A stretch of 64,000 nt of DNA from NCBI GenBank assembly GCA_016199085.1, contig JACQHJ010000001.1, positions 72,477-136,476 on the forward strand. The letters are read 5' to 3'. Below, one piece after another: positions 1,155 through 38,026 of the stretch (its first letter is position 1; the number at the start of each line of letters is the position of its first letter). A program made the position numbers and the translations under genes. The notes under the pieces were generated by a model that made no database searches, had not been told where the DNA came from, and saw only the letters and a program-made list of their open reading frames with translations. Source of the stretch: Candidatus Levyibacteriota bacterium (GTDB lineage Bacteria; Patescibacteriota; Microgenomatia; Levybacterales; UBA12049).

Positions 1155-2249
1155 CTATTTTTCCCAAGGAAAGTGGTCTCTTCCAAAGTGGCCATAAGCA
1201 GAAGTTCTTAAATAAATTGGTCTTTGTAGATTTAATCCTTCAATTATTCCTTCAACAGAGGTATCTAAAAGTTGTTTCATAAAATCCTTTATAACTTTTA
1301 TATTTTTTTTCTCTGTTTGGAAAGTTTCAACATCCTGCATAACGGGTTTTTTAGCTCCGATAAAATAGGCAAGCCTTACTTCTGCTTTGTCTGCAAGTTT
1401 TTCTTTAACAATGTTTTTGGCAAGGTATCTGGCAGCATAAGCCCCACTTCTGTCAACTTTTGTCGGATCTTTTCCGCTAAAAGCTCCTCCCCCAACCCTT
1501 GCATATCCTCCGTATGTGTCAACGATAATTTTCCTTCCAGTCAGTCCTGCGTCTGATGCGGGTCCTGGCATATGCCAAACACCAGTTCCATTTACAATCA
1601 AGTCTTTAATGTTTATCTTAAATCCAAATTCATCCAAAACATACCCTACAACTTCTTTATAAAGGTCTTTTTTAACCTCTTTTATGTCAACATCTTCTCT
1701 GTGGGGAACTGCAATTACAACCTGGAGGATCCTAGAAGGCAGTCCGTTTTTATACTCTATAGTTACCTGAGATTTTCCATCAGGGCGAAGATATTTTAAA
1801 ATCTTTTTCTCTCGGACTTCGTCAATTCTTTGCGTTAATTTATGTGCAATCATTATCGGAAGGGGCATTAATGTTTTTGTTTCCCTGCAGGCAAATCCAA
1901 ACATCATGCCTTGATCTCCTGCGCCTTTTTTCTTTACTCCTTGTGCAATTTCCCTTGATTGTTCGTGGATATATATTTCAATAGGGGATTTGTCGCTAAA
2001 ATTGAAAATATCCTCTGTATATCCTAGGTCTCTTATTCTTTTTCTGGCAACTTTTTCATAGTCTATCTTCGCATTGGCGGTTACTTCTCCCGCAAGAACG
2101 ACTCTGTTAAAGGCAGCCATTGTTTCAACCGCAACTCTTCCATAAGGATCATGTCTTAAGACCTCGTCTAGGATTGCATCCGATATTGAATCACAAATCT
2201 TATCCGGGTGTCCGCTGCAAACTGATTCTGACGTAAAAATATAATCCAT
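1155..2249 (-). CDS. metK: S-adenosylmethionine synthetase
   Basis: GHPDKICDSISDAILDE, GAGDQG and GGGAFSGKDPTKVDRSGAYAARYLAKN signatures. Confidence 0.95.
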   Translation of the reverse strand: MDYIFTSESVCSGHPDKICDSISDAILDEVLRHDPYGRVAVETMAAFNRVVLAGEVTANAKIDYEKVARKRIRDLGYTEDIFNFSDKSPIEIYIHEQSREIAQGVKKKGAGDQGMMFGFACRETKTLMPLPIMIAHKLTQRIDEVREKKILKYLRPDGKSQVTIEYKNGLPSRILQVVIAVPHREDVDIKEVKKDLYKEVVGYVLDEFGFKINIKDLIVNGTGVWHMPGPASDAGLTGRKIIVDTYGGYARVGGGAFSGKDPTKVDRSGAYAARYLAKNIVKEKLADKAEVRLAYFIGAKKPVMQDVETFQTEKKNIKVIKDFMKQLLDTSVEGIIEGLNLQRPIYLRTSAYGHFGRDHFPWEK

Positions 2250-2373
2250 AAAAAAACTCTCAAAAAGAGAGTCAAGATTTTGTCTTTTTAAGACCTCATC
2301 CTCCAGGCACCGTAGTCTTTCTCGGTTGCCGGTCCGCTACTTTGCGGGCTCTCTTGATGAACAATACTTTAAA
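2250..2373 (-). promoter_or_regulatory. SAM-I-family riboswitch-like leader (SAM-I/IV-like, no P4) with an intrinsic terminator, directly upstream of metK
   Basis: Minus-strand RNA UUCAUCAAGAGAGCCCGC..GCGGACCGGCAACC..GGUGCCUGGAGGAUGAGG carries the P1, AAGAG, GCAACC, GGUGCC and GAUGAG core elements. It is followed by CUCUCUUUUUGAGAG plus a U7 tract immediately before the AUG. Confidence 0.55.
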
Positions 2374-3063
2374 TTATTGATTCATTGCATTCTGACATGC
2401 TGCTTTTGCGTCTGCGTCTGTTATTGAATCACAAAGCGATGAATCATAACCTGTTCCCTCATTGTCTTTCATTATTTTTGTCGTTTCTTCCATCATTTTC
2501 GAATAGTCTGTGAATTTAACGTTGGATGGGGGATTAAATTTGGATTGATCAGCTCCCCATGGGTTGCATTTATAATCAAGTTGCTTATTATAGTCAAAAT
2601 ATTTATTTGCCTCATTGGTCTCGGTTTTTAGATCATCTGGGGAAATAGTCATTTTTATCCCGCTTTCCATTTGATCTCCCCAAATATAATTGTCATTGCC
2701 TTTTCTAATCATACTCATATTTGTTACTTTTCCATCTACGGTGGTTTGAAAATCTCCGCGCATATTGCCTGAAGAAACATACACGGTTCCTTTTCCTGAG
2801 AATTCATTATCTGTGCCTGTCATGTCGAAGCTGCAAGTGACATTGGCCCCGCTTGTAATAAGGTTAACCAAGGAATTCATAGCTGAATTTGTGGTTTGCT
2901 CTCCAGAAGTAGTATTTGATGTTTGGTTTTGCTGGGGAGTAGTATTTTTACCAAACATTAAGTATCCGCCAAGCCCAAGCAAAAGAAGAATAATAACTGC
3001 GGCTGCGATAATTAATTGTTTTTGTTTTAACATTAAAAAAGAGTATATAACGCAAATTTTCAA
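2374..3063 (-). CDS. hypothetical secreted or membrane-anchored protein (N-terminal TM, S/T/N-rich, four Cys)
   Basis: Hydrophobic N-terminus AAAVIILLLLGLGGYLMFG followed by a polar domain; no recognisable family. Confidence 0.45.
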   Translation of the reverse strand: MKICVIYSFLMLKQKQLIIAAAVIILLLLGLGGYLMFGKNTTPQQNQTSNTTSGEQTTNSAMNSLVNLITSGANVTCSFDMTGTDNEFSGKGTVYVSSGNMRGDFQTTVDGKVTNMSMIRKGNDNYIWGDQMESGIKMTISPDDLKTETNEANKYFDYNKQLDYKCNPWGADQSKFNPPSNVKFTDYSKMMEETTKIMKDNEGTGYDSSLCDSITDADAKAACQNAMNQ

Positions 3064-3115
3064 TAGTCAATAGTAATTAAAACCCTTGACAAATACATTT
3101 AAAAAAGAGCAATAA

Positions 3116-3304
3116 TTGTATATGGCAAAGAAAGCAGCTAAAAAGACAAAATACGAAAGCTTTAAGCTCTACGGTAAATATGAGAGGGCACAGATTGCAA
3201 TTTTTACAGTAACTGACCTTTTAATAGGTGTAGTTTTGGGATACCTGCTCCAGCCATATATCGCCGCTGCTATTACAGCCTACGCTGCAAATTCCGCCTT
3301 CTAA
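3116..3304 (+). CDS. small hypothetical membrane protein (62 aa)
   Basis: Lys-rich N-terminus and one TM; a TTGACA..AATAAT-like promoter lies just upstream. Confidence 0.3.
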   Translation: MYMAKKAAKKTKYESFKLYGKYERAQIAIFTVTDLLIGVVLGYLLQPYIAAAITAYAANSAF

Positions 3305-4749
3305 ATTCTTGGGAATAGAGATTTTTGTAAGGCTATATCGGTCTTTGTAAATTGGTCGACAATTTTCTTTGCGGTTTGCGGCATAAAAGGCTCAAGTAAA
3401 ATACCAATTTCCACAATCTGATCTACAGCGTGGGCGAGAATTGCCGACAATTCTCTTCCTTTGTGATTGGTTGAGACCTTTAGAAGTTCCCAGGGTTTTT
3501 CCTCATTTATGAATTTATCCAATTTTGTAATTTTTTGAAAAACAAGGCTTAGTGCTTCATTGAACCTAAATTCATCCAATGCTTTTTTATAGTCTTCAAT
3601 AATGTCTATGAAATGGAAATTTTTCTCTCCGGCAAGTGTTTTAAATCCCGAAGTCTCGCATAGCTTACTAACTCTTGCGATTAAATTTCCAAGTCCGTTT
3701 GCCAAATCTGCGTTATAAACTTGCCTAAACTTTTCTTCTGAGAAATCTCCATCACTAAAAGGAGAAAATTTGGAAAGACAGTAATAGCGAAGAGCGTCTG
3801 CTCCGTATTTTTCTATTAAAACACTTGGGTCAATAACGTTTCCTAAACTTTTAGACATTTTCTGTCCGTTAACCGTAAAGTATTCATGGACAAAGATTTT
3901 TTTGGGTAAGAAAAGTCCGGCCGAGATTAAAAATGCAGGCCAATAAACGGCGTGGAATCTGATTATTCCTTTCCCGATAACATGAAGATCTGCTGGCCAC
4001 CATTTTTTATAAAGATTTTCATCGGATCCAAATCCAACCGCTGTTTGGTAAATGTTTAAAGCGTCAAACCAGACATAAACTTTTTGTGTCGGATCGTTAG
4101 GGACCGGAACTCCCCAGTTTTTTGCCCTTTCATTTGATCTTGAAATACTTATATCTTCAAGACCCTTTTTAACAAAGGAGAGCATTTCGTTTCTTCTAAA
4201 GTCAGGAACTATTTCAAGCTCGTTTGATTCAATTAGTTTTAAGATTTTATCAGTATAGTTTGAGAGTTTGAAAAAATAGTTTTCTTCGCTTACTTCTTCA
4301 AGTGGTTTTCCCGGGTGTTCATGGCACTCTCCGTTTTCATCAAGTTCTTCTTTGGTATAAAACTGCTCGCATCCTACGCAATAAAGACCTTTATACGATT
4401 TCTTATAAATATCTTTTTGACAAAGTTGCCAAAGTTTCTGGGAGGATTTGATGTGTTTTTCTTCGCTTCCTTTGACTATGCTGTCAAATTTAATACCAAG
4501 TTTTTCCCAAAGATCCAAAAAAAGCTTTCCGTTTTTATCAACCAGCTCCTGAACGGTTATTCTTTCTTCTTCTGCAGCCTGGACATTTTTTAAAGAGTTT
4601 TCGTCATAGCCACATGACAAAAAAACGTCTTTTCCAAGAGTTTTTTGATACCTTGCAATCGTGTCTGATTGAATAAATTCAAGCGCATGGCCCAGGTGGG
4701 GCCTAAAATTCACGTATGGTATTGCGTTTGTAATATAGTATTTGTTCAT
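3301..4749 (-). CDS. metG: methionyl-tRNA synthetase, compact form
   Basis: HIGH-type motif PHLGHALE near the N-terminus and KMSKSLGNVI; 482 aa with no C-terminal appended domain. Confidence 0.9.
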   Translation of the reverse strand: MNKYYITNAIPYVNFRPHLGHALEFIQSDTIARYQKTLGKDVFLSCGYDENSLKNVQAAEEERITVQELVDKNGKLFLDLWEKLGIKFDSIVKGSEEKHIKSSQKLWQLCQKDIYKKSYKGLYCVGCEQFYTKEELDENGECHEHPGKPLEEVSEENYFFKLSNYTDKILKLIESNELEIVPDFRRNEMLSFVKKGLEDISISRSNERAKNWGVPVPNDPTQKVYVWFDALNIYQTAVGFGSDENLYKKWWPADLHVIGKGIIRFHAVYWPAFLISAGLFLPKKIFVHEYFTVNGQKMSKSLGNVIDPSVLIEKYGADALRYYCLSKFSPFSDGDFSEEKFRQVYNADLANGLGNLIARVSKLCETSGFKTLAGEKNFHFIDIIEDYKKALDEFRFNEALSLVFQKITKLDKFINEEKPWELLKVSTNHKGRELSAILAHAVDQIVEIGILLEPFMPQTAKKIVDQFTKTDIALQKSLFPRI

Positions 4750-4788
4750 CGATTGAATTGTAACAAAGATTGCAAGCTAAGGAAAGAA

Positions 4789-8488: not shown

Positions 8489-8902
8489 ATGAAAAATTTA
8501 AAAACCGAGATTCTAGCACTTGCAAACTATGCAGATTTCTCAAAAGATGGAAAGCTAAGCATTATAGGAATTTTTGATCGTATATTCACTAAGGAAACTC
8601 CAAGCTCGTTTATTAGAGGTTTTTTGGTTTTTAGTATTTCCGGTGGGGAAAATAATTCAAAGCATCTCATTACGGTAATAATTAAAGATAGTTCAGGAAA
8701 AATAATACTTGAGAAAAAAGTAGAGATAGTTATGGGCTCTTCAGGTAAGGGAAATTTTATAGCAGAATTAGTTGGTCTTCCCTTGCCTGTATTTGGAGAA
8801 TATAAGGTTATTTTAAAAACACTTGAAAAGGAAATTGGAAACATAAATTTTTTTGTTACACTTCCTGATCAAGTAGTAAATAATACCCCACCCGTTAATT
8901 AG
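8489..8902 (+). CDS. hypothetical protein translationally coupled to dnaK (TAAATG)
   Basis: Its start overlaps the dnaK stop; 137 aa, no recognisable domain. Confidence 0.5.
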   Translation: MKNLKTEILALANYADFSKDGKLSIIGIFDRIFTKETPSSFIRGFLVFSISGGENNSKHLITVIIKDSSGKIILEKKVEIVMGSSGKGNFIAELVGLPLPVFGEYKVILKTLEKEIGNINFFVTLPDQVVNNTPPVN

Positions 8903-8937: not shown

Positions 8938-9825
8938 ATGAATTACGAGCGTTATAGAAGCGAAGCTTCAGACATTAATTTTTTTGGGAGATTAGAAGGA
9001 TCTATTGATTCTCCTTTTGTTTCTGCAGAAGTTGTTGATTTATCTAAAAAAAATTGGCAAAAGAGCGATTTTCAGTTAGCAAAATGGCATGTGCATGCAG
9101 AAGATCATGTAACATATCAATCCAATAAAGGTTTAGTTCATTTTAAATCCAGGAATCAGGATGGTATTTATGAGGTTTTATATGAACCCGTTGCTTATGA
9201 ATTGGGTAAAAAGTATCTTGGTCTTGACTATCCTGCGACAACAGCCAGTTATTTTTTTAATAATAATACATTGATTATAGGAACACTTTCTCATGCCTTT
9301 TTTACCCAAACTCTTCATACGGCTTCATCAGTATTTCAATCCGTTTTTTTCAAAAGATTAGATCCTTATTCATTTTTGGGTGAAACAGTTGCTGCGATTT
9401 GGTACAGAAATTGGGATTGGTTAGGAGAAAAATATGATAGTGTAATTTTTGGCCAAAATCTTTCTGGTTCATCGGCCTATTATATTATTGATAGAACTCA
9501 TATATTCAAAGGACCAAGGGGAGATATAAGCCAAGATCAATTAAAGAATTATGAAATTAATAATGTGTGGTGGTGGAATAAAAATAATTCAAAAATTAAA
9601 TTAGAAAATTGTCTCCCTTTTGTTAAAAAGATAGAACGGATTCCCGATGAGGTTATAAAGGCAATATGTCTAAAATGGGCAGATAAGATTGGAGAAATTG
9701 ATAATATTAATAAAAACAGATATCTGCGAATGGCGGAAGATTTAGCAAGCTATTTAATAGGCAATAAATGGCTAGTAAGACAAGAGCTTAGCGCATACTT
9801 TAATCATGGAATTCTCTCAATTTAG
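8938..9825 (+). CDS. hypothetical protein (295 aa) between dnaK and dnaJ
   Basis: Long ORF with no recognisable motif; followed by a terminator. Confidence 0.5.
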   Translation: MNYERYRSEASDINFFGRLEGSIDSPFVSAEVVDLSKKNWQKSDFQLAKWHVHAEDHVTYQSNKGLVHFKSRNQDGIYEVLYEPVAYELGKKYLGLDYPATTASYFFNNNTLIIGTLSHAFFTQTLHTASSVFQSVFFKRLDPYSFLGETVAAIWYRNWDWLGEKYDSVIFGQNLSGSSAYYIIDRTHIFKGPRGDISQDQLKNYEINNVWWWNKNNSKIKLENCLPFVKKIERIPDEVIKAICLKWADKIGEIDNINKNRYLRMAEDLASYLIGNKWLVRQELSAYFNHGILSI

Positions 9826-9854
9826 AAGATTATAATCCCAAAACTAAAAAAGAA

Positions 9855-9876
9855 AGCGCGTAATACGCGCTTTTAT
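9855..9876 (+). terminator. rho-independent terminator (AGCGCG-UAAUA-CGCGCU plus U-tract)
   Basis: Perfect 6-bp GC stem followed by TTTT. Confidence 0.5.
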
Positions 9877-11241: not shown

Positions 11242-11595
11242 TTGTCCTCAATCTTATATACTAAATATATGTACAGACTGCCTTTTGACCTTGTTAAATT
11301 TTGGTATGTAGAAGCGCCTCTTTCTTTAATCAGTTTTTTCGGCATTGTTAATAAGCAATTTTTAACTCTTTTTTCTCTTCCCCTGATGCTTAAGACTTTT
11401 TTCAGGCCCTGGAAGAATGAATACAGGGAAGGCTTGGTGGGATTTTCTATCTTTATGGGAATTGCATTTAAAACTCTCTTTATCCTTATAGATTTGGTTA
11501 TCCTGGCTTTTCTAATAGTATCAGAAGCTATATTATTTGTCTGGTTTTTGGCGTTTCCGGCAGTTATTGTTTATCTATTTTTAATTAAACTATGA
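11242..11595 (+). CDS. hypothetical membrane protein
   Basis: 117 aa, hydrophobic. Confidence 0.35.
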   Translation: MSSILYTKYMYRLPFDLVKFWYVEAPLSLISFFGIVNKQFLTLFSLPLMLKTFFRPWKNEYREGLVGFSIFMGIAFKTLFILIDLVILAFLIVSEAILFVWFLAFPAVIVYLFLIKL

Positions 11596-13961
11596 AATTT
11601 TACGCAAGACTTTATTCTTTCTACAACAGCTTAGTTATTAAGCTTTGTAGGGCTTTCTTACTTATCGCTCTAATTCCTCTTTCCTTTCTTTCCTTAACTG
11701 ACTTACTTTATCCAAACTTTATAATTGCGGTTTTGTCGATTTTTCTAATCTTTGAAATATTTTTTAAGTTTAAGGTTGAAAGACTAATGCCTAGGGTTTT
11801 GGTATCAGAAAACAGCGATGATCCGCTTAATTCATTTACGCTTTTGGCATTAAGCTCATTTTTAACAAGCTCCAATACCCAAAAACTAATTGAAAATCTT
11901 TTAAATAAACCTCAGGTTAAGTTCATTTTGGAAAAAGCAGATATTGAAAGAAAGCAGTTAAAGCTGGTCGATATAGATAAAAATGAGCTTGCCAAAGAAG
12001 CACTTCATGTTGCAAAGCAGGCAAACGGAAAATACGTTACAACCATGGATTTAATCACCTCCCATCTTTTGTTATCTGAATCCCAGACAAAACTTTTGTT
12101 TTCCAAAAAACTAAAGCCTGAGGATCTGGAAGCAATTTTAATCTGGGCCAGAAACAGATATAAAAAAGAGGAAAATCCAAAGCGCACTCATCTTTTCTGG
12201 GGAGAAGGAATTGCCGAAGACTGGGTCTATGGCTGGACAAATGAAACGCAAAAATACATGCTTGATCTAACCTCCCAATTTATCAACAAAAAGAAAAACG
12301 CAATCGGGCGAATAAACGAATATAATCAATTACTCGAAAGTTTATATGCAGGCAAAAGCACTATTCTGGTGGGAGAGTCGGGAAGCGGTAAGACGGCGGT
12401 TGTTGAGCATTTGGCAAGAGAAAGCTTTACTGGTCTTTTATCAAAAAACCTTTTCCACCAAAGAATATTTCAATTAATGGTAGATGCTTTTATGGCAGGA
12501 GCTACAACGCAGGGCGAACTTGAACAAAGGCTTGATAATATTATCCAAGAGGTGTCTCACAGTGGGAACATCATAGTTTTCATTCCAAATATTGATAATA
12601 TCCTTGGGAATTCAAGCTTTAACTTAAATATCTCCGGAGCATTAATTCCTTATATTAAAAACGGCAATATCAGGATTATCGCAACTGCAACCCCAGCTTC
12701 TTTTAAAAAATATGTCGAGGCAAATCCTTCATTTATGGAAAACTTCTCGGTCATTAAGTTTGAGAATCTTGACAGGGCAAAAGTACTTGAAATCCTGTTT
12801 AGAAAAGCATCTTTTATAGAAGAAAAAACCAAAACGGTTTTAACCTATAAGGCAATACTTTCCAGCTTTAACTTTGCCAATTCATATATCAAGGAAAAAG
12901 TTCTTCCCGGAAGCGCAGTCATTCTACTTGAGGATACGGCAAACGCAGTTTCACTCTCCGGAAAGGCAATAGTTGAGGAACAAAATGTTGAGGAACAAAT
13001 AACAAAGAAAGTGCATATGAATGTCGGAGAGCCAAAACAGGTAGAGAAAAATCTTCTCTTAAATCTCGAAAAGCAAATGCATTTAAGAGTAATAGGTCAA
13101 GACGAAGCCGTCTCAACGATATCTGAGGCTATTAGAAGAGTAAGGGCAGGACTTAAAACTTCCCAAAAACCCATCTCATTTTTGTTTTTGGGGCCAACAG
13201 GAGTTGGTAAAACAGAAACGGCAAAAGCTTTGGCGCAGAGTTATTTCGGAGACGATAAAAAAATGATCAGGCTTGATATGAGTGAGTTCTCAGGAATTGA
13301 CGGAGAGAAAAGACTATTGGGAGCTCCTCCTGGTCAGGGAGATGAAAAAGGACAACTAACAGAAAGTATTTATGACAATCCATATTCAATGGTTTTACTT
13401 GATGAGTTTGAAAAAGCAGATCAAAAAATCCTTGATTTGTTTTTACAGGTGTTTGACGATGGAAGACTGACTGATAATAAAGGAAAGACAGTTTCATTTA
13501 TAAACTCTGTTATTATTGCAACTTCAAATGCAGCCTCAGAATATATTAGAGAACAAATTGGTAAAGGAGTAAAAGTAGACGGGAGTTTTTACAGCCAGCT
13601 GTTGGAATATTTACAAACCAAGCAAATATTTAAACCTGAGCTTTTAAACAGATTTGACGCAATTATTGTCTTTAAGCCACTTAATCAGGCTCAAATCCAA
13701 CAAATTGTTAAAATACTTCTAACTGAATTTACAAATAGACTTAAAGAGAAAGACATTGTAGCTTCATTTGATGAAAAGATAGTAGCAAAAATTGCAAATG
13801 AGGGGTTTGATAAGGATTTTGGAGCAAGACCCTTAAGAAGATTTATTCAGGACAACATTGAAGATTTAATTGCCCAGAAAATGTTAAAAGATGAGATTAA
13901 AAGGGGAGATAAGATTTTAATTTCAGTAGACACAAATGGCAATATTGAGATAAACAAATAA
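11592..13961 (+). CDS. Hsp100/Clp-family double AAA+ ATPase with an N-terminal TM anchor, no M-domain and a degenerate D1 Walker B / Arg finger
   Basis: D1 Walker A GESGSGKT; the position of the ClpB Walker B reads IIVFIPNID rather than hhhhDE; D2 has GPTGVGKTETAKALA and LLDEFEKAD. The first ~65 residues are hydrophobic. Confidence 0.85.
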   Translation: MKFYARLYSFYNSLVIKLCRAFLLIALIPLSFLSLTDLLYPNFIIAVLSIFLIFEIFFKFKVERLMPRVLVSENSDDPLNSFTLLALSSFLTSSNTQKLIENLLNKPQVKFILEKADIERKQLKLVDIDKNELAKEALHVAKQANGKYVTTMDLITSHLLLSESQTKLLFSKKLKPEDLEAILIWARNRYKKEENPKRTHLFWGEGIAEDWVYGWTNETQKYMLDLTSQFINKKKNAIGRINEYNQLLESLYAGKSTILVGESGSGKTAVVEHLARESFTGLLSKNLFHQRIFQLMVDAFMAGATTQGELEQRLDNIIQEVSHSGNIIVFIPNIDNILGNSSFNLNISGALIPYIKNGNIRIIATATPASFKKYVEANPSFMENFSVIKFENLDRAKVLEILFRKASFIEEKTKTVLTYKAILSSFNFANSYIKEKVLPGSAVILLEDTANAVSLSGKAIVEEQNVEEQITKKVHMNVGEPKQVEKNLLLNLEKQMHLRVIGQDEAVSTISEAIRRVRAGLKTSQKPISFLFLGPTGVGKTETAKALAQSYFGDDKKMIRLDMSEFSGIDGEKRLLGAPPGQGDEKGQLTESIYDNPYSMVLLDEFEKADQKILDLFLQVFDDGRLTDNKGKTVSFINSVIIATSNAASEYIREQIGKGVKVDGSFYSQLLEYLQTKQIFKPELLNRFDAIIVFKPLNQAQIQQIVKILLTEFTNRLKEKDIVASFDEKIVAKIANEGFDKDFGARPLRRFIQDNIEDLIAQKMLKDEIKRGDKILISVDTNGNIEINK

Positions 13962-15285: not shown

Positions 15286-16752
15286 ATGGATAAACCAAGT
15301 AAGTCACAAAATGATAATAAATTCTACCCACCGGTAGTTGCGGTATTGGGCCACGTTGACCACGGAAAAACAACCCTTCTTGACGCAATCAGGAAAACCA
15401 ATGTAGCCTTACGAGAACACGGCGGTATTACCCAAAAAATCGGAGCCTCCCAAATTGAAGTAACACACGAGGGTAAAAAAGAATATATCACCTTTATAGA
15501 TACCCCCGGACACGAAGCTTTTTCCAATATGAGGGGAAGGGGAGTCGCAGCAGCTGATATTGGACTGCTTGTTATATCAAGTGTTGACGGGGTAATGCCG
15601 CAGACTGTTGAGAGCATCAATCTTCTAAAACAATCCAAAGTTCCTTTTATAGTTGTCTTTACAAAATCAGATGATCCTCAAAAATTGGTTGATAAAGCAA
15701 TCCAGCAGCTTTTAAAACAGGAAGTTATGCTTGAAAACTACGGAGGAGATGTGCCTTTTATAGAAGTAAGCGCCAAAGAGAATAAAAATATCGATAAACT
15801 TTTAGATTTAATACTTTTGGTCTATGAAGTCAAAAGACACGCAAACTTCTATCCCTTTTCCGACTCAGGTCCATTTATGGGTATTGTCATTGAATCAAAA
15901 CTTGATCAAAGATCAGGACCAAAAGCGACTGTTATAGTTAAAAACGGAAAGCTTAAATTCAAGGATGAAATCTACGCGGCAAACGCCAAGGGAAAAGTAA
16001 GAAGCCTTGTTACTAGCAACGGAAAGATAGTCACGGAGGCTGGGGTTGGTGAAGGAGTTGAAGTTTTGGGATTTGAAAGCGTTCCACCTGTTGGAGAAGT
16101 AGTCACGACAACGCCAAAAGAAGTAAAGCTTGAGTATAGTCAAGAAATTTCAAACCTGCCAACGTCTCCTTTTACGGAAGAAAACCAAAACATGCTTTCA
16201 GTTGTCTTATGTGCAGATAGCCAGGGGTCTTTGGAGGCTATAGCCAATTCAATGCCTGAGAAAGTAAAGTTTGTCATTAAAAAAACCGGAGACATTGAGG
16301 TCTCAGACATTTTATTTGCCAAATCAACAGGTTCAATAGTCTTAGGCTTTAACGTCAAATTAAAACCTGAGATTCAAACTCTTGCCAAAACTGAAAAAGT
16401 CCTGGTCAAAACCTACACCATTATTTATGAAATGATCGATGAGATAAGCGACTTTGTCCAAGGAAAACTTGAGGCTTTACAGGAAGAAATATTGGGAATT
16501 GGCAAGATCCTTGCCAGTTTCCCCTTTGAAAAAACTAAAGTCTGCGGAATACGAGTTGAAGAAGGAAGAATAGCAAAAGGCGATAAAGTAAGACTGACTA
16601 GAGGTGAGAGCGTAATCGGCGAAACAAGAATCATTTCTGTTAGAAAAGGCAAAGAACAGACCTCAAAAGTAGAACAAGGCCAAGAAGCAGGTATAATCCT
16701 CTCCCCTTTTCTTGACTTTACTATAGGAGATATGGTAATATCCCATAGCTAA
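15286..16752 (+). CDS. infB: translation initiation factor IF-2, minimal form starting at the G domain
   Basis: VVAVLGHVDHGKTTLLD, DTPGHEAF and TKSD GTPase motifs; 488 aa; nusA-infB synteny. Confidence 0.9.
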   Translation: MDKPSKSQNDNKFYPPVVAVLGHVDHGKTTLLDAIRKTNVALREHGGITQKIGASQIEVTHEGKKEYITFIDTPGHEAFSNMRGRGVAAADIGLLVISSVDGVMPQTVESINLLKQSKVPFIVVFTKSDDPQKLVDKAIQQLLKQEVMLENYGGDVPFIEVSAKENKNIDKLLDLILLVYEVKRHANFYPFSDSGPFMGIVIESKLDQRSGPKATVIVKNGKLKFKDEIYAANAKGKVRSLVTSNGKIVTEAGVGEGVEVLGFESVPPVGEVVTTTPKEVKLEYSQEISNLPTSPFTEENQNMLSVVLCADSQGSLEAIANSMPEKVKFVIKKTGDIEVSDILFAKSTGSIVLGFNVKLKPEIQTLAKTEKVLVKTYTIIYEMIDEISDFVQGKLEALQEEILGIGKILASFPFEKTKVCGIRVEEGRIAKGDKVRLTRGESVIGETRIISVRKGKEQTSKVEQGQEAGIILSPFLDFTIGDMVISHS

Positions 16753-20722: not shown

Positions 20723-21784
20723 ATGGATTCTGTCCAAAATCTCGATAGTGACATCTTGAAATTAGAAGAAAAGGTAAAAGCCGCAAATCTTCCTTCGGAT
20801 TTAGTTGAAAAAGTAAACACAATGTTATCGATCATAAAAATGAGTTTAAAAACTGGCAACAGCCAGATCTCAAACTTTGAAAATATTCAAAATTATATTA
20901 ATTTAATTTGTTTACTTCCCTTTAACTCTGAAACCAAAGACACAATGGATATTAATTTTGCAAGAGAGGTTTTGGATAAAAACCATTACGGATTAACATC
21001 GGTCAAAAACACTATTTTGGAATATCTGTCAGCTTTGATTTTAAGTATGGAAAAAGCGTCAAGCGCTGAAATAAGAGCACCGATTCTTTGCCTTGTGGGA
21101 CTTGCCGGAACCGGAAAAACAACTCTGGCTTACTCAATCGCAGAGGCTTTGGGAAGAAATTATGAAAGAATTCCTTTTGGAGGAATGGGTGATGCTTTGG
21201 CACTTCGTGGACAATCAAGAAGTTTTGCCGATGCAGAACCTGGTCAGATTATTAAAAAGTTAATTCATGCAAAAAGCAAAAATAGCGTTATACTTCTAGA
21301 CGAACTCGATAGGGTTTCAGACAGTGCCAGGGCAGATATTATGGGAGTATTGGTAGAGCTACTGGATAGTGAACAAAATAAAGCATTTTCCGATCACTAT
21401 GTAGATTATCCTTTTGATTTATCCCATGTATTGTTTGTCGCAACGGCAAATAATACAACCAATATCTCAACAGCTGTACTAGACAGAATGGAGATAATCC
21501 AAATGCCATCATATTCAGATGAAGAAAAAACAGTTATCGGCAAAAATTATTTAATGCCTAAAATAATTAAACAAGCAGGGCTAGTTGAAGGTCAAATTGC
21601 TATTGAGGAAAGCGTCTGGCCGCTAATTATTAGACCCCTTGGTTTTGACAGCGGAACAAGAAGTTTGGAAAGAACATTGGAAACTATTGCAAGAAGAACG
21701 GCAAGATTAATAGTTGAAGGAAAATTAGATAAAAATGGTAGAATGATTGTAACAAACGAAAATATTAAACAATTTATTAGTTAA
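20723..21784 (+). CDS. lon: Lon-type AAA+ ATPase module without the S16 protease domain or the N-terminal substrate domain
   Basis: HYGL, ILEYL, ILCLVGLAGTGKTTLAYSIA, LLDELD, FSDHY, LFVATANN and LLDRMEII match LonA motif for motif. The ORF stops about 5 aa before RNase J begins. Confidence 0.75.
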   Translation: MDSVQNLDSDILKLEEKVKAANLPSDLVEKVNTMLSIIKMSLKTGNSQISNFENIQNYINLICLLPFNSETKDTMDINFAREVLDKNHYGLTSVKNTILEYLSALILSMEKASSAEIRAPILCLVGLAGTGKTTLAYSIAEALGRNYERIPFGGMGDALALRGQSRSFADAEPGQIIKKLIHAKSKNSVILLDELDRVSDSARADIMGVLVELLDSEQNKAFSDHYVDYPFDLSHVLFVATANNTTNISTAVLDRMEIIQMPSYSDEEKTVIGKNYLMPKIIKQAGLVEGQIAIEESVWPLIIRPLGFDSGTRSLERTLETIARRTARLIVEGKLDKNGRMIVTNENIKQFIS

Positions 21785-29974: not shown

Positions 29975-32302
29975 TTAATTAGAAGAGATATTAATAGTTA
30001 TATTATTGGGATTTTTAGGAAGCGTTGATGAGACAAAGGGCAGATTGGGTGTTACCCTTATATCAACTTCTTTAACATTTGTCAGATTTGAAAGCATGTT
30101 CTTTGTCTTCACTACATCTGTCCCTGCAATCTGTTTAATAAGGTCTTGGGTATTTATGTTTGGGAAGAGCTTTGCAGAAACCACCAAGTCTGCGGTTATA
30201 TCTTCATTTTTTTGTAATTTTATGTTTTTGGCATTAACGCTAAACTCACTTTTATCAATGGAAAAGGCAGAGTTGTCAAACATTTTCTCAGACAGTTTCT
30301 TTACGTCTTTATTGTCATATGAGAGAAAATCAAAAGAAACAGTTGCGGAAAGACTAACCTTATCTGCCTGGTCGTCCTCTTTTTTATCAAACTTTTCTTT
30401 GGTTAACGTTGTATCAACAAACTGGGGAAGAATTGTTCTTCCATCCTTTACTTTAGATGCAATGTCGCCTTTTGCTTTATCAGACAAGGTTTTAGGAAGT
30501 TCAGATCGAAGTTTTGCCAGATCATTATCTGAAACTACGGTTACATTTTTCTTTGTTCCGCCAGAGAATGCATTGTCATTTTTTCCGGCAACTGTTTTAC
30601 TTGTGCCGACTGTGAATTTGGCGCCACTTGGAAGATTTGATTCTGTTCCTATTTCCTCAGCTGTTACGTTTACGTTTGTAGTTCCGGGTTTTGTCCCTGA
30701 GAAGACGTCTCCTGAGGCAGAAGCTACTTTAATAGAAGAGTCTAAGACAAATTTAAGTCCGGTTGAAGAGGTAATTACGGTTCCTGAGTTTAAACTTACA
30801 GAGTCTGTATCGTTATTAAAGATTGTTACCGTTCCTTTGGCTTTTGTACCGATATCTTTCTTTCCGCTTGCATTAACAGTCGTTGATCCCTCTTCATCAA
30901 CTGGGATAAGTTCTGCTCCTAAGGTGTTGTCGTCAATATTGGTTTGTCCGTTTGGAGTAAAAGTTATACTTTGGGTTTTTTCATCTGTTTTTGGATCAAC
31001 GATTAACGTTACCTTGGCACTTGTTTGGAAAATGAAGGTAAAGAAGATAAAAAGAGCCAAAATTAAACCTCCAAGGGCAAAAGCAATAAATTTAATGTCT
31101 TTTACGCTTCGAACTTTAATTAGAGGAAGAATTAGAATAAAATACTTTTTAAGTAACCCCATTACGTCAATTGAGACAGTTTTAGCTTTGGTTGCAGTTT
31201 CAACCGCAAGTTCCGGTGTTCCATAGCTTTCTTCTTCAAGCTTTACGTCTTGGGGGATCTCGGCGGATCTAAATTCAAGTTCTTCTTTGGGAAGATCGGC
31301 TAGAGGTTCTTTGGCAGATGCTACCTTTGCTACAGGAGGAGCCTGCTTGACAACGTCGCCACTACTAAAGCCGAAAAACTCCAAAGACGAGTCTTTGCCC
31401 ACATAGTCTAATTTTCCCTCACTCTTTTCCTCTTCGAATGGTTTTGGCTTTGCTTCTTCCATTGATTCATCGTCGGTTTTTATCACTTCCGGCTCTTCAT
31501 CCTCTTTTTTGGCAAATTCTTTAGAAAGAGTTTGGTTATGGTCAAAGATAAGAGCCGTTCCCATCTGAGTTGCGGCACCCAGTAGCACTGCTTTTATATC
31601 TGCGTCCTGGGGAAGACTCATAATTTGGGGGATATGTAAAAAGGGAAGTGATTTACTCCACTTGTGGTTTATAAATTCCTGGGTTAGTTCGTCTTCTTCG
31701 CTATCTAAGACAATAATTCTTGCGGGCATTACTTCGGGGATTTGGAAGTGTTTTAAGACGGTATCAACTGTGTGAGTAACTGATTCGTGTATCTCGGATG
31801 ATCTTACCTCCATTATCTTTCCCGCTCTTATTAAAGAAACGGAGAGGTATTTCTTGCCAACGTCGACAAGGATGGCTGTAACCGGCGCTCCTTCATCTTT
31901 GTGGATTAGATTAACAACGCTTTCTGTAAAGACCAAAAAGCCGATTGGATCAAGGGATAATTCTTCTCCTGCTTTTTTAAGTTTCTCCAGATACTCTTTT
32001 TTAATCTTATTGTCTTCAACCCAGGATTCTTTTAAACCAAAAATAGTTTTGTGGGTTTCGATATCCTTAGGGAGTACTTCTTCGGCAGCGGTTATTGCCT
32101 TATCAAGTACGTTTAGGAATTCTTCGGTTGAGGCGTCCTCAATCGTATTGGTGAATTCTTCTTCGGAGTCGTTTAGGTATTTGATTGTGGTACCAATTTT
32201 CTCAAATACCACAGCCTTAACTTTTTCGTTTCTTAAAATAAGAGATAAGAAATATTCGGATTTTTCTTTTTTATCAAGAAAGGGCAGTGTCGAAATATTC
32301 AT
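29975..32302 (-). CDS. PilM-like actin-fold N-terminal domain fused through one TM to a large S/T/N-rich extracellular beta-rich domain
   Basis: KVKAVVFEKIG and AILVDVGKKYLSVSLIRAGKI resemble PilM/FtsA; a mid-protein TM; C-terminal half rich in T/S/N/V/K. Confidence 0.4.
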   Translation of the reverse strand: MNISTLPFLDKKEKSEYFLSLILRNEKVKAVVFEKIGTTIKYLNDSEEEFTNTIEDASTEEFLNVLDKAITAAEEVLPKDIETHKTIFGLKESWVEDNKIKKEYLEKLKKAGEELSLDPIGFLVFTESVVNLIHKDEGAPVTAILVDVGKKYLSVSLIRAGKIMEVRSSEIHESVTHTVDTVLKHFQIPEVMPARIIVLDSEEDELTQEFINHKWSKSLPFLHIPQIMSLPQDADIKAVLLGAATQMGTALIFDHNQTLSKEFAKKEDEEPEVIKTDDESMEEAKPKPFEEEKSEGKLDYVGKDSSLEFFGFSSGDVVKQAPPVAKVASAKEPLADLPKEELEFRSAEIPQDVKLEEESYGTPELAVETATKAKTVSIDVMGLLKKYFILILPLIKVRSVKDIKFIAFALGGLILALFIFFTFIFQTSAKVTLIVDPKTDEKTQSITFTPNGQTNIDDNTLGAELIPVDEEGSTTVNASGKKDIGTKAKGTVTIFNNDTDSVSLNSGTVITSSTGLKFVLDSSIKVASASGDVFSGTKPGTTNVNVTAEEIGTESNLPSGAKFTVGTSKTVAGKNDNAFSGGTKKNVTVVSDNDLAKLRSELPKTLSDKAKGDIASKVKDGRTILPQFVDTTLTKEKFDKKEDDQADKVSLSATVSFDFLSYDNKDVKKLSEKMFDNSAFSIDKSEFSVNAKNIKLQKNEDITADLVVSAKLFPNINTQDLIKQIAGTDVVKTKNMLSNLTNVKEVDIRVTPNLPFVSSTLPKNPNNITINISSN

Positions 32303-32310: not shown

Positions 32311-34107
32311 TTAATCTACTTTGGCATAGATTCTTTTATATCCTTTACCTAAATTCTCTTGCTTTATTATTCTAAAACTTTTAATCGCTCCTGTAAACTC
32401 AACGTGCGGCCCTCCGCAAAATTCCCTGGAATAATCTCCTATAAAATACACCTTTACATTATCAGAATACTTTTCATCAAACAGTCCTATGGCTCCAAGC
32501 TCCTTAGCCTTGGCAAGAGGCATAATTTCAAAGTGGACAGGGAGGTTGTCTTTAATTTTACCTCTTACTATTTCTTCAACCTTTCGAAGTTCTCCTTCGG
32601 AGAGCATTTTGTCGTGGTTAAAGTCAAAGCGGAGACGCTCTGAGGTTATATTACTTCCAGATTGGTGGAGTTTATCTCCAAAGATGTCTCTTAATGCCTG
32701 GTGTAAAAGATGTGTTGCAGTGTGTCCTTTGATTGTTAGCTCGGAAGTATCAGCAAGGCCACCTTTAAACATGCCTGAAGAGGCTGTTTTGGATAATTCT
32801 TTGTGTTTTTCCATTGAATCAGCAAATTCTTGATCGTTAAAGGTGTAACCCATGCTTTTTATCTGTGTTGGGGAAAGTCCATATGATGTATAGAGATTAA
32901 AGGCAGTTTCTGCAGAAATGATCTTAAATCCTTTAAGCTCATCTCCTACTTCGATTTCATCTTTAACATTAATCTCTAAAAATTTCTTTGCCTCACTCAG
33001 AGCCTTTTTATATTTTTGGCCTTCTTCTAATATGGAATTTTTAATGAGTTCAAAGTTTGCTTTAAGGCTTTCGTCTGTTTTAGAGCATTCTTCTACAATT
33101 GCAGTGAGAATAGAGGAGAGTTGATCTTGGTTTACCTCTCCCAGGTTATCGATGGCTCTTCTTATCAGTCTTCGAAGGATATATCCTCTTTCTTTATTAG
33201 ACGGTTCTACTTTTGCATCAAGAAGGTAAGCTGAGGCACGAAGGTGGTCTGCAATGATTCTAAACTCTCTTTGGTTTTCTTTGTAGGATTTAGAAGTTGC
33301 GGATTCAATAGCGTCAATGATTGGTTTAAAAAGAGAAGTTTGGAAAATATCAGACTTATTTTCTACTGCAGCCAATAATCTTTCAACTCCTCCTCCAAAA
33401 TCAACGTTTTTGTTAGGTAATTCTTTAAACCCGTCTTCTGTTTTTATGTATTGCATAAAGACAGAATTGGCAATTTCTGAAAATTTACCACATTCACATT
33501 TAACAGGATTATCGCCTTCACATTTATCAGTATGTTCAATATCGTCGAATCTAAAATATACTTCTGTATCCGGTCCTCCAGGTTCACCGATTGGCATTTT
33601 GTCAGGGGTTCCACTTCTTGACCACCAGTTAGTATCATCTGCAAAAATTCTATCTTCAAGTCCTTCTTTTACTAGTACATCTTTCCAGATCTTTTCTGCT
33701 TCAGTGTCATAGCCAATATTTTCATATCCATTAAAAACAGATATATATAGTTTTTCTTTAGGTAACCTTAGCTCTTTGGTTAGAAATTCCCAAAGCCAGG
33801 GGATTTCTTCGGATTTGAAATAATCTCCCAAGGACCAGTTGCCTAGCATTCTGAAAAATGTTGTATGCCTATTATCTCCAACTTCTTCAATATCAACTGC
33901 TCTGAAGCAATTTTGTACGTCAACAAGCCTGTTTCCAGAAGGGTGAGGTTCGCCTAAAAGATATGGAACCAGTGGCTGCATGCCGGAAGAGGTGAAAAGA
34001 GTTGTTGGATCATTCTCTGGAACCAAAGGAGAGTTGGTAATTTGTTTATGTTTTCTTTTTTCAAAAAAAGAAATATAAACGTCTATTATTTGCTTAGTAC
34101 TTAACAT
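32311..34107 (-). CDS. alaS: alanyl-tRNA synthetase, compact (no C-Ala domain)
   Basis: FTSSGMQP and FFRMLGNWSLGDYFK class II motifs; editing-domain motifs HTATHLLHQAL and CGGPHV. Confidence 0.85.
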   Translation of the reverse strand: MLSTKQIIDVYISFFEKRKHKQITNSPLVPENDPTTLFTSSGMQPLVPYLLGEPHPSGNRLVDVQNCFRAVDIEEVGDNRHTTFFRMLGNWSLGDYFKSEEIPWLWEFLTKELRLPKEKLYISVFNGYENIGYDTEAEKIWKDVLVKEGLEDRIFADDTNWWSRSGTPDKMPIGEPGGPDTEVYFRFDDIEHTDKCEGDNPVKCECGKFSEIANSVFMQYIKTEDGFKELPNKNVDFGGGVERLLAAVENKSDIFQTSLFKPIIDAIESATSKSYKENQREFRIIADHLRASAYLLDAKVEPSNKERGYILRRLIRRAIDNLGEVNQDQLSSILTAIVEECSKTDESLKANFELIKNSILEEGQKYKKALSEAKKFLEINVKDEIEVGDELKGFKIISAETAFNLYTSYGLSPTQIKSMGYTFNDQEFADSMEKHKELSKTASSGMFKGGLADTSELTIKGHTATHLLHQALRDIFGDKLHQSGSNITSERLRFDFNHDKMLSEGELRKVEEIVRGKIKDNLPVHFEIMPLAKAKELGAIGLFDEKYSDNVKVYFIGDYSREFCGGPHVEFTGAIKSFRIIKQENLGKGYKRIYAKVD

Positions 34108-34222
34108 GCATATATTATATCAGGCTATAGTTCGGTTTGAAATGTATCCTTACATGAAAGAAGAACCTCTGAAAATAAGTTTCTGGCTCGATTTAAATAC
34201 AGAAAAGATATAGAATAATATT

Positions 34223-37200: not shown

Positions 37201-38026
37201 ATTAACTGGAGAAGGAGGAGATATTTTAGGTGATATAAATAAGGGAAGGGTAAATGTTGCTTTTACTCGAGCTAGATTACAGGTTCATTGCTTTGTTAGT
37301 ATGGACCCACTTCCTGATAGAATTTGGATTAAAAAATTTATAGACTATATTAAAGAAAATGGAGAAATTAATTTCTATTCGAGCGAATTAAATGATTTTG
37401 ATTCTTTTTTTGAAAAAGAATTTTACGCATATGTAAAAGACTCACTCTCAAAGGAGTATCTTATCCAAAACCAGGTAGAAAGTTGTGGTTTTAAGATTGA
37501 TTTTGTAATCTCCTATAAGCAAACAGGTAAAAGACTCGCAATTGAATGTGATGGCCCAACACATTTCGAAAATGAAGTTGATCAAGAGCTCGGTATTTAT
37601 GTTGAAAGCGATGAAGAAAGACAAACTGTTCTGGAGGCGGCAGGTTGGAGTTTCTATAGAATTAAATATTCAGACTGGATAGATAAGAACAAAGTTAAGG
37701 ATGTATTTATAAATGAAATTAAAAATTATTTCAAAATTTCTTCTGAGAGAGAAACTATTATAGCAAAACCCAAAATAAGTAAGTATGAAGGTATAAAGAT
37801 AGATTTCGATTTAAATCCATATTTGAATAACAAAGAAGTTTGGTTCCTGTTGTCGGTTTGGGGTAAAAAGAGTGGTCAATTTATTGGATTTCAAAATAAA
37901 TTTTGTTATTCTCTAGGTAGATATCTTTCTAGGAAACCTGAGTTAACAGTTAAACAAGCAAACTATGGAAGATATCTTCTTAATACAGCAATTAAAAAAG
38001 GATTTTCCCTAGATGGAATTAAATGA
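34223..38026 (+). CDS. DUF4011 + SF1 (Upf1-like) helicase + C-terminal DUF559 / Vsr-like PD-(D/E)xK nuclease fusion
   Basis: Walker A GPPGTGKSE; LDEASQ; VGDPEQM; NYRSPKELIGFSNQYFY; VAFTRAR; C-terminal FKIDFVISYK...LAIECDGPTHF...AGWSFYRI. Confidence 0.8.
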   Translation: MNLTNFVKYCLGYVKLTKQRSFFSQQKNSLELDKDQLNLEGLLNGEADGQLAEIINLKTFYSNDPKNISGEEEEQYLKEKNLANKIQEIYNKFRNDQFTKEIAINFGYFEIELTLDNVNEEDQDVEIQEKEVKISKYPLFSLPVKIETQIENGIYKYYLYYSDQEIKVNLNVLEKLFDENNKADTFYQLIEKIGEEEIQGKFSLPIIEHDILYETWDKVRALLKLTDAKFEDESFNLEESTLSLNSKSNYFLAEDLLKLSKIEAEELKGTALESWVSDAETNLESEVPSEEQLYFPFPYDRFQLKSLSLLGNQASIIQGPPGTGKSETIANILCHLAANGKKVLFISQKSQALKVVKDKLKKTGINYMFGYVPNPASASVTEEDETDGIAPQLTALNTFIQKMTYKLNYWNERKETLGTISQRIGGLKKSFNSVIEDERNYFTLHEELNELLRYKSEIGNNKDFFENADSEKWEKIKELINQFQAVDLELLKYKKNNNDFSNRFPIELFQNEQYSIKINEILSNVSKTGYDRNSKFFRWLNNTKRNIILRNVRSALPSEVINEIDKILNSEISKHESSRQLTELNEFIIFRENTVLKQKINEEIKKGLEVIGLNIDQYKNIEKIIKQTGIDFKIYKDKIEKINELEIQLKDLAKNYDLSELRKSINSSKISRSNVISSYIQNIINKRIMDKWMLQNIKRVVLRLAKAFGKSKKAYKTFDELRRDPENFNSIIDLVPVWIMELDDASRIIPLMPRMFDYAILDEASQCNVAYTLPVMFRAKKIVFVGDPEQMRDSTIRFKANRDFDELAKKYSIPGDLQIKSTGNAVQSVLDIALLRGFNSNNLQYHYRSPKELIGFSNQYFYKPKGKELIALNNNYLTYRDTNRIMLVHEVENKKNNNEEIADNINIAEAKAILSFFKELRENPNTKDKSIGILTFFNGQATYIRELFEQEGFKEEDDNYIVSIIEGIQGDEKDIILYSFVIRELDQKRKYGALTGEGGDILGDINKGRVNVAFTRARLQVHCFVSMDPLPDRIWIKKFIDYIKENGEINFYSSELNDFDSFFEKEFYAYVKDSLSKEYLIQNQVESCGFKIDFVISYKQTGKRLAIECDGPTHFENEVDQELGIYVESDEERQTVLEAAGWSFYRIKYSDWIDKNKVKDVFINEIKNYFKISSERETIIAKPKISKYEGIKIDFDLNPYLNNKEVWFLLSVWGKKSGQFIGFQNKFCYSLGRYLSRKPELTVKQANYGRYLLNTAIKKGFSLDGIK

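Follow-up and report, generated by a model that had tools for sequence, protein, structure and literature searches.

We analysed a stretch of 64,000 nucleotides (the window) from a Candidatus Levyibacteriota bacterium (assembly GCA_016199085.1, contig JACQHJ010000001.1, positions 72,477 to 136,476), in which two overlapping genes encode a small membrane protein and a 789-residue ATPase of the Clp/Hsp100 superfamily. Judging from its sequence and from structural models, the ATPase very probably combines a transmembrane (TM) anchor, a degenerate first AAA+ module (D1) and a second module (D2) with a complete ATPase site, and very probably forms a two-gene module with its small neighbour. Taken as a whole, the pair is best explained, with a probability of roughly one half, as a membrane-integrated Hsp100 derivative specific to the Candidate Phyla Radiation (CPR), in which D1 would be a scaffold and D2 the sole motor, working at the membrane with a non-canonical grip.

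A two-ring ATPase derived from Clp/Hsp100

The ATPase gene starts with ATG and runs as an uninterrupted reading frame, and a protein 100% identical to its product is on record from a Candidatus Levybacteria metagenome-assembled genome (Patescibacteria group; Microgenomates; Levyibacteriota). The features of the two genes are the following, with the supporting evidence in brackets (AF2, AlphaFold2; ORF, open reading frame).

11269-11595 (+): gene of the small membrane partner, 108 aa; likely start ATG at 11269, start in the ORF list TTG at 11242; its stop overlaps the ATG of the ATPase gene (ATGA)
11592-13961 (+): TM-anchored two-ring Clp/Hsp100-type ATPase, 789 aa (ORF, Pfam, alignments, AF2)
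11592-11777 (+): N-terminal amphipathic helix (residues 2-11), TM1 (14-35) and TM2 (43-62) (AF2, hydropathy, conservation)
11787-12191 (+): helical N-domain, divergent Clp_N-like, residues 66-200 (AF2, hhalign)
12201-12239 (+): superfamily signature GEGIAEDWVYGWT in the linker between N-domain and D1, residues 204-216 (conservation)
12300-12962 (+): D1 AAA+ module, catalytically degenerate (alignments)
12372-12395 (+): D1 Walker A, GESGSGKT
12501-12524 (+): D1 pore loop, ATTQGELE, no Tyr
12573-12596 (+): D1 Walker B position, IVFIPNID
12681-12695 (+): D1 sensor-1, T367, kept
12735-12749 (+): D1 arginine-finger positions, MENFS
12963-13031 (+): short D1-D2 connector, residues 458-480, no coiled coil of a middle domain (M-domain)
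13032-13676 (+): D2 AAA+ module, ATPase site intact, sensor-1 N646
13191-13214 (+): D2 Walker A, GPTGVGKT
13278-13310 (+): D2' loop, MSEFSGIDGEK, remodelled
13320-13355 (+): D2 pore-1 loop, GAPPGQGDEKGQ, remodelled
13389-13412 (+): D2 Walker B, MVLLDEFE
13545-13583 (+): position of the ClpP-docking loop, reading IREQIGKGVKVDG, no insertion, no conserved IGF/IGL
13641-13658 (+): D2 arginine finger, R687
13680-13919 (+): D2-small (ClpB_D2-small) domain (Pfam)
13818-13844 (+): sensor-2, GARPLRR, within D2-small

Pfam recognises AAA (residues 258-366, 1.9e-16), weakly AAA_lid_9 (398-472), then AAA_2 (527-691, 2e-45) and ClpB_D2-small (697-776, 4.5e-24), that is, the tandem of AAA+ modules, the second of AAA_2 type and followed by ClpB_D2-small, that marks class I of Clp/Hsp100. 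The nearest PDB structures are Thermus thermophilus ClpB and Bacillus subtilis ClpC (E ~1e-107, nearly the whole score coming from D2). An AF2 model, built from a 46-sequence alignment with a mean predicted local distance difference test score (pLDDT) of 80.5, finds ClpC and ClpB as its top Foldseek matches (E = 1e-48 to ClpC), and hhalign, run with the family profile against a canonical Clp profile, aligns residues 129-789 with a probability of 100. The NCBIfam equivalogs for ClpB, ClpA, ClpK, ClpG and ClpV all match strongly and all far under their curated cutoffs: the ATPase scores 444.6 bits with TIGR03346 (ClpB, cutoff 1232.1), 362.3 with PRK10865 (ClpB, cutoff 1417) and 394.8 with TIGR02639 (ClpA, cutoff 993.15). 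No curated Pfam or NCBIfam model covers the family. By these comparisons the ATPase belongs to the Clp/Hsp100 superfamily but does not qualify as a ClpB or a ClpA/ClpC by the tests that define these; it is derived from a class-I protein, and in it a two-helix TM hairpin is followed by a divergent Clp_N-like domain and by the modules D1 and D2.

Conservation was counted in the 120 closest levybacterial relatives, which share 54-100% identity with the query, are all ~790 aa long and for the most part span 100% of it. More than 150 columns of the ATPase are invariant, which speaks for strong purifying selection. The register of every motif was taken from three independent alignments, namely HMMER against PDB sequences, a MAFFT alignment that included Escherichia coli ClpB and ClpA together with a levybacterial ClpB-like protein, and the hhalign comparison. 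All three lack an insertion opposite E. coli ClpB residues ~400-525, where the M-domain lies, and give a ClpA-like junction between D1 and D2; an earlier note on this DNA, which had judged the linker too short for a ClpB M-domain, is borne out here.

The N-domain is divergent. Pfam Clp_N (PF02861) gives no match on residues 66-213, even at E <= 1; hhalign nevertheless matches residues 129-190 with the second repeat of canonical Clp_N, and AF2 builds eight helices at residues 78-189. The signature GEGIAEDWVYGWT that follows is the most conserved superfamily-specific element of the ATPase. Its W211 is near-invariant even in relatives at 25% identity, and AF2 confidence is low there. This element could be an interfacial anchor, a contact with the partner or a substitute substrate contact.

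A hydrophobic N-terminus inside the coding region

The predicted TM helices of the hydrophobic N-terminus, which the earlier note had singled out, number two and lie within the true coding region by hydropathy, AF2 and codon statistics. Kyte-Doolittle windows of 19 residues stay above 1.6 over residues 10-40 and 34-61, with values of 1.8-2.15 reached over 10-40 and 40-61, and AF2 places helices at 2-11, 14-35 and 43-62 with a pLDDT of 84-89. Among the homologues M1, K61 and P67 are invariant and E55 is near-invariant, and both E55 and K61 sit in TM2. When the first 66 codons are compared with those of three ~80%-identical homologues, 28-30 differences fall on third positions and 7-10 on second positions. 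A downstream start at Met66, which would delete the TM region, is excluded by the conserved N-terminus, by these third-position substitutions, by the ATGA overlap with the stop of the upstream small gene and by the in-frame fusions described below; the worry that the hydrophobic stretch might lie upstream of the true start is thereby settled in favour of a coding, conserved region. Membrane tethering of the ATPase is supported by these predictions, and since TM2 and the N-domain are separated by no more than a few residues, the N-domain/D1 face would lie against the membrane.

A first ring stripped of its catalytic residues

In D1 the Walker A motif is intact (GESGSGKT for the canonical GEPGVGKT), as had been claimed, and the P-loop residues G261, G264, G266 and K267 are invariant in the 120 homologues. 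The residue after the P-loop Lys is Glu in 105 of them and Thr in 9, including the query, and the IGR motif of the adenine pocket is kept. The Walker B position does read FIPNID for FIDELH: in all three alignments P332-N333 stand opposite D278-E279 of E. coli ClpB, and they also face D270-E271 of the T. thermophilus protein. The position of the Asp is Pro in 120/120 homologues; at that of the catalytic Glu, 95 have E, 18 have N and 6 have D. Likewise, the finger arginines R331/R332 (ERRFQ) align with E383/N384 (MENFS), both Arg being lost as proposed, and no homologue (0/120) has Arg at either position. A mis-registration of these residues is excluded, HMMER, MAFFT and hhalign agreeing and the flanking anchors being identical.

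Sensor-1, by contrast with the earlier claim, is not altered. T367 aligns with E. coli ClpB T315, the second Thr of GATT, which we take to be sensor-1, and 116/120 homologues have T or S there. The query motif is ATAT, and a difference is confined to the position next to sensor-1, that of T314. A change that the earlier note had not remarked concerns the pore loop, where the query reads AGATTQGELE and canonical proteins AGAKYRGEFE, and where none of the 120 homologues has an aromatic residue.

Because Pro occupies the Walker B position throughout, no finger Arg remains and the P-loop pattern G-x-x-G-x-G-K is invariant, D1 would be non-hydrolysing: the alignments show that the ATPase lacks the means for canonical hydrolysis chemistry in this ring. 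Of the proposal that D1 binds ATP and does not hydrolyse it, the second half is thus supported by a family-wide loss of motifs, and the first is no more than plausible: the query keeps GKT, but most homologues read GKE.

A complete ATPase site with replaced pore loops in the second ring

D2 shows a complete ATPase site, its Walker A, Walker B, sensor-1, arginine finger and sensor-2 being invariant in the 120 homologues. The description of D2 as fully canonical holds for these motifs and fails for the pore-1 and D2' loops. The pore-1 loop of the query, GAPPGQGDEKGQ (GAPPGQGDEKG), is two residues shorter than the canonical GAPPGYVGYEEGG and has no aromatic residue, and since it lies between two identical anchors, GAPPG and GQLTE, no re-registration restores the Tyr. 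The D2' loop has changed from MEKHSVS in ClpB to SGIDGEK. An aromatic residue occurs in the D2 pore loop of only 1/120 homologues. In its place stands a loop G(E/Q)G(D/S)EKG, with E in 116, K in 114 and G in 120 of the 120 proteins; because the replacement is itself conserved, it would be a selected new state and not decay. In ClpB, Y251 and Y653/V654 intercalate into the substrate and grip the polypeptide (PMC6546751). Of the 120 homologues, 119-120 lack the equivalents of these residues in both rings.

D2 also contains no ClpP-docking IGF/IGL/VGF tripeptide and no helix-loop-helix insertion, the loop being of ClpB-like length. The query has QIGKGV at this place, and its G position is variable in the family (G 47, A 24, Q 18, E 13, S 11). 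ClpP itself was found neither in the window, by tblastn, nor by its signature in the flanks of 80 genome loci that carry the ATPase.

A small membrane protein accompanies the ATPase

Directly upstream of the ATPase lies a gene for a small membrane protein, often missed by gene callers, whose length of 108 aa from the ATG at 11269 matches that of its homologues. Pfam and NCBIfam give no match on it, and its 1266 database clusters are all named 'hypothetical'. Synteny and linkage were counted over the 80 loci, of which 76 are informative, the other four ending at a contig edge. A hidden Markov model (HMM) of the partner finds a copy directly upstream of the ATPase, on the same strand, in 76/76 informative loci. 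Sixteen partner residues are invariant (F11, W12, N28, T43, F45, P47, K49, N50, E51, Y52, R53, G55, L56, K68, E86 and P97), many of them within the motif T-x-F-x-P-(W/L)-K-N-E-Y-R-x-G-L, and K68, D75 and E86 are predicted to be membrane-embedded.

In six levybacterial loci (L033, L047, L050, L053, L067 and L073) partner and ATPase are fused in frame, in ORFs of 826-891 aa. In five of the six fusions the ATPase has lost its own N-terminal helix and TM1, one TM being left; in L067 a masked stretch makes this unjudgeable. In distant members with 25-31% identity (P0195, P0197, P0222 and P0224) the motif FSxxLLxxTLFxPW[KR]RD makes up the N-terminal end of the ATPase itself, and in others (L009, L091, L092 and L094) the partner motif stands in an adjoining small gene. 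These Rosetta-stone fusions, combined with the universal adjacency, show that partner and ATPase work together.

In the AF2 model of the partner (pLDDT 83.8) a helix at 4-35 is followed by a short one and then by the conserved loop 45-55, after which residues 56-107 make up a hydrophobic helix; a fold search with this model gave no significant match. If 56-107 forms a hairpin, the fusions would place the PWKNEYR loop outside the cell; if it is a single span, the loop would be cytoplasmic.

Distribution of the family

A genome scan found 202 species-representative genomes with a relative of the ATPase. With the N-terminus and D1 as query, a search of 1.84 billion representatives at 50% identity gave 97 matches at E <= 1e-30, and ~100 clusters at 50% identity have the same architecture. 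The counts for this superfamily rest on 109 full-length proteins among the best 150 matches, 103 of which bear N-terminal TM segments. All 103 keep GKT, DE and the arginine finger in D2, and all 103 lack GY[VI]G. In D1, RR is found in 1 representative, a Walker B DE in 20 and GK[TS] in 35. The sequence of the D2 pore loop differs between superfamily clades.

The organism names recovered (Levybacteria, Gottesmanbacteria, Microgenomates, Berkelbacteria and 'Patescibacteria group') all belong to the CPR. A profile search with 30 distant members returned mostly canonical ClpC and ClpB and added only Berkelbacteria and 'Patescibacteria group' to the names. Many third-party annotation (TPA) assemblies with the levybacterial pair (L011, L012, L022, L024-L026 and others) bear the title 'uncultured Gammaproteobacteria bacterium', and a single one that of 'Candidatus Woesearchaeota archaeon'; such names are probably placeholders or wrongly assigned. 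On the organism names available, the module occurs only in Patescibacteria, and in the literature searched we found no description of a membrane-anchored Hsp100 in the CPR.

Two of the distant TM-bearing Clp proteins, P0249 and P0212, start with two CxxCxGxG motifs that resemble a DnaJ-type zinc finger and precede the TM segments, so that in these lineages the protein may have a cytosolic head that binds clients or metal.

Gene neighbourhood and other features of the window

The pair stands in a tightly packed series that reads hrcA-grpE-dnaK-(two ORFs)-dnaJ-EamA-like-partner-ATPase-nusA-infB. Across the 80 loci nusA lies downstream of the ATPase in 58 and dnaJ upstream in 21. A search for the controlling inverted repeat of chaperone expression (CIRCE) operator with up to 3 mismatches gave no match, and all that turned up was a promoter-like site upstream of hrcA. 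The two ORFs between dnaK and dnaJ encode a DUF6941 protein (8489-8902) and an unannotated protein of 295 aa (8938-9825), and a perfect 21-nt palindrome, AAAGCGCGTATTACGCGCTTT, stands at 9853-9873, just ahead of dnaJ.

The ATPase is the sole Clp-type gene of the window, in keeping with the earlier note: tblastn with ClpP, ClpX, ClpA, ClpB and the levybacterial ClpB-like protein found no ClpP, no ClpX and no second ClpB in the 64 kb, the only other match being a Lon-type gene that encodes the ATPase alone. This gene (20723-21784, +) specifies 353 aa with the Lon AAA+ module and Lon_lid only, without N-domain and protease domain; the protein shares 40% identity with residues 291-580 of E. coli Lon, and its gene holds the same place downstream of pnp in loci L001 and L003.

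Some related genomes do have a second Hsp100. At locus L003, 3 kb upstream of the pair, positions 2197-4773 encode an 858-aa paralogue with Clp_N, DE, RR and GYVGY and without an M-domain, and a GYVGY-type paralogue lies directly upstream of the pair in 7/80 loci (L045, L048, L049, L051, L056, L065 and L089). Because the two coexist, the TM-anchored ATPase would be a second Hsp100 with a specialised role rather than a housekeeping ClpB that has degenerated. The 858-aa protein has no ClpP loop, reads SHR for KYR in its D1 pore loop and ends in a long low-complexity tail.

Elsewhere in the window, IF2 (15286-16752, +) has only 488 aa and is without the long N-terminal part that the E. coli protein has, a short form also present in L001 and L003 (492-495 aa). 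A 775-aa protein (29975-32302, -) matches Baseplate_J weakly (E = 1.6e-5) among otherwise cellular neighbours. At 34223-38026 (+) a superfamily 1 (SF1) helicase (AAA_11/AAA_12) is fused to a REase_MTES_1575/DUF559-type nuclease in a protein of 1267 aa; the stretch 34001-38000 has a G+C content of 30%, ~7 percentage points under its surroundings, and gives the impression of an acquired island or of a defence gene. Finally, 41103-43451 (+) encodes a 265-aa protein consisting of the adenylation domain of an ATP-dependent DNA ligase alone and, after it, a 515-aa protein that contains several helix-turn-helix units of sigma-70 region-4/GerE type.

Comparison with known AAA+ machines

With ClpB/Hsp104 the ATPase shares two AAA+ modules, AAA_2 and ClpB_D2-small, all D2 ATPase motifs, ~40% identity in D2 and the lack of a ClpP loop. 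It differs in having neither the M-domain nor the D1 Walker B, the D1 arginine fingers and the KYR and GYVG tyrosines, and in having the N-terminal TM hairpin and an obligate small membrane partner. With ClpA/ClpC/ClpE it shares the junction between D1 and D2 without a full M-domain, and its best Foldseek matches are ClpC chains; unlike these proteins it has no IGF/IGL/VGF loop and no UVR or half-M-domain.

NSF-D2, p97-D1 and PEX1/PEX6-D1 are rings that keep their P-loop, have lost catalytic residues and pore-loop aromatics, and serve assembly, while the other ring of these soluble proteins of the classical AAA clade is a motor with aromatic pore loops. The division of labour between a non-catalytic ring with a P-loop and a motor ring would be the same in the levybacterial protein, but the active ring keeps its aromatic loops there and D2 does not.

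Torsins are the AAA+ proteins nearest to Clp/Hsp100, and they have an N-terminal hydrophobic domain, no aromatic pore loops and transmembrane cofactors (PMC5425593). They are thought not to thread their substrates, although the mechanism itself is unsettled (PMC5425593). The levybacterial ATPase resembles them in its relation to Clp/Hsp100, its N-terminal membrane association, its non-aromatic pore loops and its transmembrane partner. Torsin, however, is a single module without an arginine finger of its own, luminal, eukaryotic and activated by LAP1/LULL1, whereas the levybacterial protein is bacterial and has two rings and a full D2 active site that includes the invariant R687. A Pfam Torsin match exists at 5.2e-4, under the cutoff. 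The resemblance is best taken as a functional analogy, not as membership.

According to two further papers, an N-terminal TM anchor in FtsH and in Msp1/ATAD1 sets the entrance of the AAA+ pore at the membrane, for quality control or extraction of membrane proteins (PMC8943139; PMC12793716). Our ATPase likewise has an N-terminal TM anchor that would place an AAA+ ring at the membrane, but FtsH and Msp1 have a single module of the classical clade with an aromatic pore loop, and homology is limited to the AAA+ core. FtsH also carries an M41 protease domain; Pfam finds no Peptidase_M41 match in the ATPase.

A proposed remodeller at the membrane and its rivals

To explain these observations we propose that D1 would be a non-hydrolysing assembly ring, at most nucleotide-binding, in the manner of NSF-D2 or PEX1/6-D1, and that D2 would be the only motor. 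The ATPase would presumably be a hexamer, its N-domain/D1 face held to the inner face of the membrane beside the small partner, which in some lineages belongs to the same polypeptide. Hydrolysis by D2 would then remodel or pull membrane-embedded proteins, either clients presented by the partner or the partner itself, with a grip that dispenses with canonical aromatic pore loops. Because there is no IGF/IGL loop, the ATPase would not dock ClpP, and because there is no M-domain, it would escape M-domain/DnaK control. As a function, the remodelling of membrane proteins is a tentative assignment that we put somewhat short of even odds.

Several points weigh against this proposal. The loss of aromatic pore loops in the sole active ring argues against processive pulling, the closest precedent being Torsin (PMC5425593); in fact, since the pore lining is polar and acidic, canonical threading is doubtful. 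Nucleotide binding by D1 is uncertain, given the Glu that follows the P-loop Lys in most homologues and the absence of GK from 14/103 superfamily representatives. The topology of the partner is ambiguous, AF2 giving one helix at 56-107 and the fusions with one extra TM allowing a hairpin or a single span. Synteny gives little functional direction (nusA is frequent and dnaJ is not), and no CIRCE operator was found.

The main rival, unlikely but serious, is a Torsin-like ATP switch that does not thread at all: D2 would alter the conformation or oligomeric state of the partner assembly and in this way control some process at the membrane, perhaps division, lipid handling or the biogenesis of the envelope, with no pulling on a polypeptide. 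Torsins provide the precedent of Clp-related, membrane-associated, cofactor-dependent proteins without aromatic loops (PMC5425593); both pore loops are here non-aromatic and polar or acidic, the dedicated transmembrane partner is obligatory, and the D2 loop varies between clades, as would be expected without a generic polypeptide grip. Unlike Torsin, however, D2 keeps its own arginine finger and full catalytic set (103/103), two rings and a Clp_N-like domain are the typical substrate-processing apparatus of Hsp100, and the D2 loop varies very little among Levybacteria. A conventional disaggregase or unfoldase, tethered to the membrane and threading aggregated or misfolded polypeptides through its pore by the power of D2, is improbable. 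The earlier note had predicted such an enzyme, of which the tether stands; the activity finds no backing in two rings without gripping tyrosines, ClpP loop and M-domain. In its favour speak the fold and D2 ATPase site, like those of ClpB/ClpC, the place of the gene just downstream of hrcA-grpE-dnaK-dnaJ in this genome, the DnaJ-like double CxxCxGxG of some superfamily members and the 25/103 representatives whose D2 loop has an aromatic residue at another place. But the gripping tyrosines are missing from nearly all close homologues and GY[VI]G from all representatives, the D2' loop is changed, an M-domain for coupling to DnaK and a ClpP loop are absent, a separate GYVGY-type paralogue is available for the job, and linkage to dnaJ is limited to about a quarter of the loci.

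Still less probable, and in our view remote, is an ATP-driven translocon or extraction channel, in which the ~30 TM helices of an ATPase-partner hexamer would form a conduit coaxial with the AAA+ pore and move a protein or other polymer across or out of the membrane, as do Bcs1, FtsK and EccC of the type VII secretion system (T7SS). Gene pair and fusions imply a fixed 1:1 stoichiometry and many TM helices per ring, conserved charges lie inside the membrane (E55 in TM2 of the ATPase; K68, D75 and E86 in the partner), and the pore lining is polar or acidic, not of the greasy gripping type; the model is nonetheless purely architectural, no cargo gene is consistently linked and the partner could have either topology. 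We also considered whether the ATPase might be a pseudo-enzyme in decay, an artefact of annotation or an accessory ATPase with a role in defence, for instance one like DolB of the Dodola anti-phage system, to which the degenerate D1 and a PADLOC match to DolB might point. This match is partial (residues 368-659, E = 9e-38), being confined to generic sequence at the end of D1 and to the AAA core of D2, and the neighbours are core genes, so that the DolB assignment was rejected. An intact frame under purifying selection in both proteins, the presence in so many species-representative genomes and the core-gene synteny next to nusA-infB largely refute the whole reading, whose probability is close to negligible. 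The membrane-integrated remodeller with a scaffold D1 and a motor D2 is accordingly the reading that we retain.

What the family may mean

Hsp100/Clp proteins are textbook soluble threading motors, and their pore-loop tyrosines are considered essential. The family described here would be a large, strongly conserved bacterial branch of Hsp100 that is membrane-embedded, with a pseudo-ATPase D1, both tyrosine loops replaced and a full D2 ATPase. The public name of the protein, 'ATP-dependent Clp protease ATP-binding subunit ClpC', implies a coupling to ClpP that its sequence does not support. The family bears on whether AAA+ work is possible without aromatic pore loops, a question that is also open for Torsins. 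It is possible, if on balance rather unlikely, that the pair represents an undescribed class of bacterial membrane-integrated AAA+ machine, in which a Clp/Hsp100-derived double ring would be fixed 1:1 to a small polytopic membrane protein and would do its work without aromatic pore loops. Such a machine would be a bacterial counterpart of Torsin-type remodellers or an ATP-driven conduit or extractor coaxial with a ring of ~30 TM helices, and a core, lineage-defining component of the CPR envelope. Among the levybacterial genomes that were examined the module is conserved, and more distant relatives of it occur in other Patescibacteria. Since these organisms have minimal genomes and their envelopes are poorly understood, a membrane ATPase conserved in them is a promising candidate for a part in envelope functions or proteostasis peculiar to the lineage.

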